Shown piece after piece: positions 18,299 through 19,072 of a DNA stretch of 64,000 nucleotides (its first letter is position 1; every line of letters begins with the position of its first letter). The stretch lies in NCBI RefSeq assembly GCF_024298765.1, contig NZ_CP101210.1; one strand, given 5' to 3'. The stretch comes from Escherichia coli. GTDB taxonomy: Bacteria > Pseudomonadota > Gammaproteobacteria > Enterobacterales > Enterobacteriaceae. The notes beneath the pieces are model-generated. The model was not told where the DNA came from, made no database searches, and saw only the letters and a program-made list of their open reading frames with translations. The position numbers and the translations under genes were made by a program.

Positions 18299-19072
18299 TC
18301 AAAAATTAGGTGAGTAACGGACCGGGGACATAGCTCCTTTTTTTCTTAATTCATCTGGTATTTTTTTTCCAAGATAAAGATTTGCTATTTCAGGTGGGGC
18401 TTCTCGACCTTCAAAACCATAGCGAGAACTTTGTGTTGCCTCAAAGTCAGGATCCTCGTCCCAGTATTTCATCGTAGGGAAATTTTCACGTGTTGATTTG
18501 AGCCATTTATCAGCAATGAAAACCCCTCGAACGATCCCCCTTACAGTAGCAAGAATGACTTCTGCTTGGCTGGCGCGAGAGACATTAATGCGCCAGCTAA
18601 ATCGAACCGCATCATAAAGCTCTGAATCCTTTGCACTTCTGTTAACGGAAATCATTAATGCTTTATGATGAAATATTATGGTTTCGGGTTGATATGTTGC
18701 TATCAACTCTTTGACATGCGCGGCGCCGAATTCATTGCTGCCAGCACCATTCATGATATTCGTTAACCCAGGGTAGGCATCAATAAGTGCAGCTTCAACT
18801 TCGTACGCCGTCTTTTCATCAGTCATTCCGTGTCGATGGATGACATGGATAACTTCAAGTCCTGCTAACCTTATTTCTCTAATTTGCTTTAGCTTGTTGC
18901 TCAGTAACTCGTCATCATCAGTCGCTGCCACTTCACCGCGCATATGGGCAAATACGCGGTTACCTTTGCCTTTCCCTACATAGAAGGTGCTTCCGTCCCT
19001 CGGATCAATCAATCGGTATACATACCAGCCAAGGTGTTCAATTACTCCAGAAGGAAACTCAGTAATATCCAT
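18299..19072 (-). CDS. GIY-YIG domain nuclease, orphan (257 aa), function unknown
   Basis: N-terminal GIY-YIG-type motifs (YVYRL...[13 protein letters not shown]); C-terminal 150 aa has no motif I recognise; low-GC gene convergent with pin and divergent from the methyltransferase. Confidence 0.7.

Follow-up and report, generated by a model that had tools for sequence, protein, structure and literature searches.

McrA (EcoKMcrA), which is encoded by the e14 element of E. coli K-12, is an HNH nuclease that targets 5mC or 5hmC in the Y(m)CGR context. PvuRts1I and AbaSI depend on 5hmC or 5ghmC and combine a flipped-base sensing domain with a separate nuclease domain; the sensor is SRA-like, and the nuclease has a Vsr/PD-(D/E)XK-like fold. 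These enzymes cleave at approximately N11-13/N9-10 between two symmetric modified cytosines, leaving short 3' overhangs. The described system closest to the gene analyzed here is CMoRE (Cytosine Modification Restriction Endonuclease), the new name given by Liu et al. (Nat Commun 2026, PMC12923530) to PD-T4-3, which these authors trace back to the functional selection of Vassallo et al. 2022 (PMC9519451), with E. coli ECOR68 as its source.

When expressed from its native promoter, CMoRE causes an approximately 10^5-fold drop in the EOP of T2, T4, and T6, and cells carrying it survive a high multiplicity of infection, indicating that the defense is direct and non-abortive (PMC12923530). The purified enzyme, which uses Mg2+ or Mn2+ as its cofactor, degrades T-even DNA as well as PCR products made with 5hmC or 5ghmC; C and 5mC DNA are neither bound nor cut, leaving the host genome untouched (PMC12923530). 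T4(hmC) stays sensitive to CMoRE, while T4(C) escapes fully (PMC12923530). Cleavage occurs at CN11/N9G to give 2-nt 3' overhangs, needs two modified cytosines, and proceeds without strict sequence specificity (PMC12923530). Both the substrate specificity and the defense against T-even phages were shown for proteins from O157:H7, APEC O1, and a Klebsiella (PMC12923530).

Crystal structures of CMoRE, including a complex with 5hm-dCTP, have been published (PMC12923530). Its nuclease motif, GIYxY-YIG, is a GIY-YIG motif with an extra tyrosine, and Y17, Y19, and Y31 were tested by mutagenesis together with the catalytic Arg and Glu (PMC12923530). A 15-residue acidic loop covers the active site; the 4A mutant, in which alanine takes the place of each of the four consecutive acidic residues of this loop, cuts ordinary DNA and is toxic (PMC12923530). 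The enzyme is a tetramer (dimer of dimers), an assembly that depends on V92/L96 and is required for function (PMC12923530). [quoted passage not shown] A Capnocytophaga homolog that is 48% identical degrades T4 DNA, not T4-GT7 DNA, and at high concentration degrades Mu DNA too (PMC12366544). In the clinical isolate NILS69, deletion of the native PD-T4-3 gene sensitizes the cells to Tevenvirinae, with plating going up (10.1101/2024.12.20.629700).

We analyzed a window of 64,000 nucleotides from Escherichia coli (contig NZ_CP101210.1 of RefSeq assembly GCF_024298765.1), focusing on a gene for a protein of 257 aa near one end of a prophage. The features of this part of the window are given in Table 1.

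Table 1. Features in and around the 257-aa nuclease gene, in window coordinates
Feature	Coordinates	Strand	Basis and remarks
Invertible tail-fiber segment	15749..17625		20-nt inverted repeats 15749-15768 and 17606-17625 (95% complementary); opposed stf/tfa pairs inside
pinE-type serine invertase	17687..18241	+	RefSeq of identical locus; NCBIfam serine-recombinase matches; 91.9% nt identity to K-12 pinE
CMoRE / PD-T4-3 gene	18299..19072	-	257 aa and stop; ORF scan, PADLOC, PHROG 5356, PDB 9U75
C-terminal modification-sensing domain (predicted), including Y127	18302..18730	-	approximately residues 115-257; alignment to crystallized domain; function per PMC12923530
N-terminal GIYxY-YIG nuclease domain	18743..19072	-	approximately residues 1-110; Y17, Y19, Y31, R39, H43, E93, N105; Pfam, alignment
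Acidic run D52-D53-D54-E55 of the autoinhibitory alpha2-alpha3 "safety-catch" loop	18908..18919	-	sequence ATDDDELL; loop role per 4A mutant (PMC12923530)
Upstream region inherited with the CMoRE ORF, presumed native promoter	19073..19270	-	198 bp; homology to four loci without EcoRII R-M
M.EcoRII-like Dcm-type C5-cytosine methyltransferase	19479..20912	+	NCBIfam PRK10458, E = 1.5e-279; PADLOC MTase_II; RefSeq start
R.EcoRII-like type II restriction endonuclease	20947..22161	-	PDB 1NA6 (EcoRII), residues 1-403, full length, E = 3e-243; PADLOC REase_II, E = 1.9e-234
ssrA (tmRNA)	22390..22752	-	ARAGORN; Rfam RF00023, 295.8 bits; 3' end is the prophage/chromosome junction

The original prediction described a minus-strand ORF of 257 aa with GIY-YIG motifs in its N-terminal part, a C-terminal part in which no motif could be placed, and a GC content low relative to the tail genes, and each of these points was borne out. 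According to the ORF list of the window, the 257 codons begin with ATG. The nuclease motif is present as a GWYVYRL stretch with Y17, Y19, Y31, R39, and H43, and residues 28 to 110 match the LEM-3-like GIY-YIG domain of Pfam (E = 3.7e-14), with only a marginal match to the classical GIY-YIG model (E = 0.47). In the C-terminal ~145 residues, Pfam detected nothing. The GC content is 43.4% in the ORF, 57 to 60% in the tail genes, and 51% over all of the window. Because the NCBIfam scan returned no family for this ORF, the RefSeq label at the identical locus is a generic one, "LEM-3-like GIY-YIG domain-containing protein."

The prediction also treated the protein as an orphan that belongs to no described family. 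This claim of novelty falls, because we obtained the outcome that the prediction itself had set against it: a confident match, over the full length, to a characterized family. Residues 1 to 256 align to positions 1 to 255 of the 256 in the PADLOC model for PD-T4-3 (PDLC04031, E = 4.7e-140), which covers both domains and leaves no extra domain in the window protein. A second full-length match is to PHROG 5356 (E = 2.3e-143). In a search of the PDB, residues 1 to 257 align without gaps to 9U75/9U8D (E = 2.4e-171) and to 9U7U/9U7Z (E = 7.1e-150), all deposited under the name "GIY-YIG domain-containing protein"; the first pair is the CMoRE of E. coli O157:H7, and the second is the APEC O1 protein (Liu et al., Nat Commun 2026, PMC12923530). 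Counting from the alignment, we found 252 of 257 residues (98.1%) identical to 9U75 and 218 of 257 identical to 9U7U.

Residues reported as functional in CMoRE are conserved in the window protein. In the numbering of PMC12923530, Y17, Y19, Y31, R80, V92, L96, and Y127 all match, so that the tetramer-interface residues V92/L96 are kept along with R80. R39, H43, E93, and N105 are invariant in an alignment that includes phage homologs of 33 to 46% identity. The catalytic Arg and Glu, to which the text of PMC12923530 gives no numbers, are putatively R39 and E93. The acidic loop reads ATDDDELL in the window, AADDDDLL in O157:H7, and AVDDDELL in APEC O1, with four acidic residues kept in each. The window allele thus shares with O157:H7 CMoRE its length of 257 aa, the GIYxY-YIG motif, the acidic loop, V92/L96, and Y127, and it differs by five substitutions: T51A and E55D in or beside the acidic loop, and I133T, Q169K, and N197H in the sensing domain. 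Given the 98% identity to a protein of solved structure, the fold predicted for the C-terminal domain follows directly from that structure. Because PMC12923530 shows domain boundaries only in a figure, the boundary used here (near residue 115) is approximate.

Judged by its sequence, motifs, domain architecture, and single-gene organization, the 257-aa gene is assigned to CMoRE/PD-T4-3, with type I architecture. One of three hypotheses in the original prediction was a single-gene anti-phage nuclease, possibly modification dependent, and the PD-T4-3/CMoRE identity supports it. We estimate a probability of about 95% that the gene encodes a functional type IV restriction enzyme that requires 5hmC/5ghmC, an estimate based on sequence comparison with the characterized proteins. 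The CMoRE family and its structure, specificity, and phenotype are already published, and nothing reported here is new with respect to the nuclease. The practical value of the result is a corrected annotation: CMoRE/PD-T4-3, type IV restriction enzyme.

A second hypothesis in the original prediction was a free-standing GIY-YIG homing endonuclease, which would spread by inserting itself into its cognate site. The GIY-YIG domain and a size typical of that class are consistent with this reading, and some homologs in jumbo phages bear the depositor label "putative homing nuclease." The only match to a homing model, PHROG 314 "homing endonuclease," is marginal (E = 0.0038) and falls on residues 17 to 133, whereas the full-length match is to PD-T4-3/CMoRE, an enzyme in which the C-terminal domain recognizes 5hmC and not a homing site. 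Residues 111 to 257 contain no DNA-binding module known to Pfam. The published cleavage activity needs modified cytosine and has no strict sequence specificity, and in the loci examined the gene occupies the same prophage slot after pin, with no conserved gene interrupted. Compared to I-TevI-type homing endonucleases and the N-terminal domain of UvrC, CMoRE is distinguished by the tyrosine of GIYxY, the 15-residue acidic insert between alpha2 and alpha3, the sensing C-terminal domain, and the tetramer. Weighing the marginal match over the nuclease region against the sensing domain and the fixed position, we rejected the homing endonuclease, to which we assign a negligible probability.

The neighborhood of the CMoRE gene also agrees with what had been predicted from the sequence. 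The gene lies between a pinE-type invertase, which serves the invertible tail-fiber segment, and an EcoRII-type R-M pair, the latter identified by its PRK10458 and 1NA6 matches. It is convergent with pin, from which it is separated by 57 bp, and divergent from the methyltransferase. The AT-rich spacer on that side, predicted at about 400 bp, has 34.9% GC and measures 364 bp if the methyltransferase gene begins at the longest-ORF start (19437) and 406 bp if it begins at the RefSeq start (19479). The element is followed by ssrA, smpB, and then host genes; therefore, CMoRE and the EcoRII pair take up the att-proximal end of a prophage whose integration site is ssrA.

We used related loci to define the unit in which CMoRE is inherited. 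Using a threshold of at least 95% nucleotide identity, we detected the CMoRE gene in approximately 822 to 837 of 5,426 complete E. coli genomes, intact and almost always chromosomal. The block comprising pin, CMoRE, M.EcoRII, and R.EcoRII (at least 80% of it) is present in only 238 genomes. M37H and an O103:H2 isolate are examples of strains with the locus seen in the window. In O157:H7 PA20, UPEC-245U, LH10-b-1, and M7638, CMoRE directly follows pinE, its far neighbor is an AraC-family regulator, and the integration site is a different one. Homology between the window and these four loci, at 95 to 96% nucleotide identity, extends from the right-hand inverted repeat across pin and the ORF as far as 19270, a point 198 bp upstream of the CMoRE start codon. 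The unit of inheritance is thus pin, CMoRE, and 198 bp. Because the four loci carry an AraC-family gene in place of the R-M genes and homology ends at 19270, the EcoRII module (approximately 19271 to 22389) is a separate insertion, and a dedicated partnership of CMoRE with the methyltransferase is therefore ruled out. CMoRE has no obligatory partner gene, its distal neighbor being either the EcoRII R-M or an AraC-family gene. The O157:H7 protein resembles the window allele in organization as well, as a single gene after pinE in an e14-like prophage or its remnant. The distal neighbors differ: EcoRII R-M and ssrA in the window, and the AraC-family regulator at another integration site in PA20.

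These comparisons bear on the third hypothesis, in which the protein is the partner of the Dcm-type methyltransferase, a Vsr-like nickase of T:G mismatches that repairs deamination at CCWGG. The original prediction noted the lack of a vsr ORF overlapping the methyltransferase gene at its 3' end, and we likewise found no vsr-sized ORF in the ORF list there, only a 69-aa ORF with a TTG start at 20743-20952. This, together with the position of the divergent gene directly beside the methyltransferase, speaks for such a partnership. The NCBIfam, PADLOC, and Pfam scans gave no Vsr match to the protein, however, and the gene occurs in far more genomes (approximately 822 to 837) than the block with EcoRII does (238). 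The cassette ends at 19270, with an AraC-family gene replacing the R-M genes in four sequenced loci. The activity published for CMoRE is double-strand cleavage of hmC DNA, with no binding or cutting of 5mC or unmodified DNA. We rejected the Vsr hypothesis because there is no partnership with the methyltransferase, no Vsr match, and no published activity on 5mC or unmodified DNA; its probability is vanishingly small.

The position of CMoRE in the window had been likened to that of mcrA in e14, and the comparison holds. The gene order of e14 in K-12 is ymfQ-stfP-tfaP-tfaE-stfE-pinE-mcrA-att. Aligned to e14, the window shows 91.6% identity across pin and loses homology at 18243, two bases beyond the stop codon of that gene. 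Like CMoRE, mcrA occupies the att-proximal slot directly downstream of pinE, and RefSeq describes its product as a type IV methyl-directed restriction enzyme. The two genes differ in orientation, mcrA being co-directional with pin and CMoRE convergent with it. The enzymes differ too: CMoRE is a GIY-YIG nuclease that leaves 5mC alone and takes glucosylated hmC as a substrate. The Pfam, NCBIfam, PADLOC, and PDB searches gave no HNH or McrA match to the window protein, and the two enzymes share class and position, not ancestry. The end of pin is the site of a clean module swap between CMoRE and mcrA. PvuRts1I and AbaSI resemble CMoRE in the geometry of cutting reported for it (CN11/N9G). Both of their folds are unlike those of CMoRE, which is no member of that family.

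A close pinE is present in about 1,240 E. coli genomes, and other loci with such a gene carry different genes after it. In PEC122, intS follows directly; in PEC178, host genes follow; in ECE170, a DUF2335 gene and hypothetical genes are found; and in VL7S7, there is a gene for a small membrane protein. Only a decayed remnant of the prophage is left in E89 and O157:H7 PA20, with pin and CMoRE intact in both, and E89 has also kept the R-M genes. Our sample of the slot between pin and att comprises about ten loci. Tentatively, this slot in e14-like prophages (with a Mu-type tail and an invertible fiber) might be a defense hotspot, one lacking a formal description, in which one type IV enzyme replaces another precisely at the stop codon of pin and further modules are stacked, and in which EcoRII and CMoRE form a deliberately complementary pair in the window, kept despite prophage decay. 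We regard this broader proposal as rather doubtful. To our knowledge, the slot between pin and att has not been formally described as a defense hotspot. A type II R-M system (EcoRII) next to a type IV enzyme that tolerates the 5mC made by that system illustrates how prophages can combine compatible defenses.

We also considered whether the window gene might be a silent or degenerate copy, a CMoRE homolog by descent that is unexpressed or inactive in this prophage and contributes nothing to defense. A promoter and terminator scan of 18100-19600 returned three promoter-like sites, compared to 3.5 expected by chance, none of them within the 198-bp upstream block, and it returned no terminator-like site, either between pin and CMoRE or elsewhere in that region. 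Reading the sequence by eye, we saw no obvious Shine-Dalgarno sequence before the ATG. The APEC O1 ortholog is weak when driven by its own promoter (PMC12923530), which leaves doubt over the native expression level of the window allele. In NILS69, one phage escaped the native PD-T4-3 and did not escape the plasmid-borne copy (10.1101/2024.12.20.629700). Set against these points, the ORF is unbroken over its full length and retains every functional residue, and the ORF and its upstream block are 95 to 100% identical in hundreds of genomes. In both decayed-prophage loci examined, CMoRE has been retained beside pin, and the native-promoter O157:H7 construct and the native NILS69 locus are both active. 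Overall, we consider a silent copy highly improbable and favor a working restriction enzyme, with its native promoter presumably in the 198-bp block. The by-eye reading also showed TTGTGA-17-TAATAT approximately 35 to 65 nt upstream of the ATG, a site that scores 8/12 and that we do not claim as a promoter.

For the working enzyme, we infer the mechanism by transfer from the O157:H7 protein, for which it was shown and which is 98% identical. CMoRE is cargo of an e14-like prophage that is integrated at ssrA, at the end of the element next to pin. The C-terminal domain of the tetramer would bind 5hmC or glucosyl-hmC in incoming DNA of T-even-type phages, with two modified cytosines approximately 21 bp apart required. 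The N-terminal GIYxY-YIG domain would then cut, with Mg2+ or Mn2+, at CN11/N9G to leave 2-nt 3' overhangs. The acidic loop (D52-E55) over the active site would repel weakly bound DNA, whether unmodified or carrying 5mC; therefore, the host chromosome would be spared, including the 5mC that M.EcoRII writes at CCWGG. Defense would be direct, not abortive. The EcoRII R-M system is an independent module, and its coverage would complement that of CMoRE: EcoRII would act on unmodified CCWGG, and CMoRE on hmC DNA, which type II enzymes fail to restrict. Less probably, the modification specificity of the I133/Q169/N197 allele might be shifted.

Among isolated phage genomes, we found no close copy of CMoRE (at least 60% identity), only homologs of 32 to 46% identity; therefore, the prophage itself is not represented there. 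Full-length homologs with 39 to 46% identity are encoded by jumbo phages of Serratia, Pectobacterium, Pantoea, Pseudomonas, and Klebsiella. We aligned two of these homologs, from Serratia phage Moabite and Pseudomonas phage OBP; both lack the acidic safety-catch loop and keep the catalytic residues.

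We compared the interval that runs in the window from the stop codon of pin to the end of the prophage with the same slot in related E. coli prophages (comparison loci L002-L004 and L008-L014) and found that its content differs among them. The slot holds CMoRE with the EcoRII restriction-modification (R-M) pair, CMoRE with an AraC-family regulator, mcrA (in e14), DUF2335 with hypothetical genes, or a small membrane protein, and it can also be empty. Homology between the window and e14 runs to 18243 and then stops; against CMoRE loci without the R-M pair, it stops at 19270. The slot has the appearance of a hotspot for cargo or defence genes, although the sample covers only about ten loci.

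The decayed prophages of E. coli E89 and O157:H7 PA20 both retain an intact pin-CMoRE unit, and in E89 the EcoRII R-M pair is likewise intact. One of these prophages carries an IS3 insertion and a sole remaining fibre fragment, and in the other, truncated replication genes are fused to fibre genes. In both, the defence cargo appears to have outlived its phage, as mcrA has in e14.

Searching phage genomes, we found full-length CMoRE homologues (39 to 46% amino acid identity, 97 to 99% coverage) encoded by jumbo phages of approximately 250 to 285 kb that infect Serratia, Pectobacterium, Pantoea, Pseudomonas, and Klebsiella, where depositors labelled them "homing nuclease" or "GIY-YIG endonuclease." In an alignment with two of these proteins, from Moabite and OBP, residues Y17, Y19, Y31, R39, H43, E93, and N105 are invariant, and the four-residue acidic autoinhibitory loop of CMoRE is kept in neither. 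The jumbo-phage homologues may serve as a phage-borne weapon against competitors with hmC DNA. A more distant homologue, with 32 to 33% identity in an alignment spanning both domains, occurs in two E. coli phage records of approximately 108 kb (PhiR41_1 and CP053388.1). These records look like phage-plasmids, and a ParA partition gene adjoins the homologue. This homologue, too, has no acidic loop.

Locations of features in the window and in the comparison loci (L-numbers)
Feature	Location	Detail
Inverted repeat	15749-15768	AAACCTTGGTTTGGGAGAAG; 20 nt, 95% complementary to its partner
Inverted repeat	17606-17625	CTTCTCCCAAACCAACGTTT; 20 nt
Variable slot	18242-22389	pin stop codon to prophage end
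pheA leader	40623-40748	
RyfD sRNA	45495-45633	
rRNA operon	48630-53730	complete, with tRNA-Ile and tRNA-Ala
Decayed prophage, O157:H7 PA20	L003:1-7774	
Decayed prophage, E. coli E89	L012:3964-9555	
CMoRE homologue, Serratia phage Moabite	L005:3001-3765	
CMoRE homologue, Pseudomonas phage OBP	L006:1492-2253	
Distant CMoRE homologue, Escherichia phage PhiR41_1 (108 kb)	L007:2956-3723	next to parA

The start codons of the EcoRII pair are ambiguous. For the methyltransferase, the longest ORF (491 aa) begins at 19437 and the RefSeq annotation at 19479; we favour the latter, given RefSeq and the 477-aa length of M.EcoRII. The endonuclease begins at 22155 in RefSeq (402 aa) or at 22161, and the 404-aa ORF from 22161 aligns to PDB 1NA6 starting at residue 1.

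The pin invertase serves the invertible segment of approximately 1.9 kb between the inverted repeats, which contains tail-fibre tip and assembly genes as two pairs in opposed orientation. The remainder of the window, from 22967 to 64000, consists of ordinary E. coli chromosomal sequence, including smpB, ratA, recN, ffh, and the rpsP operon.
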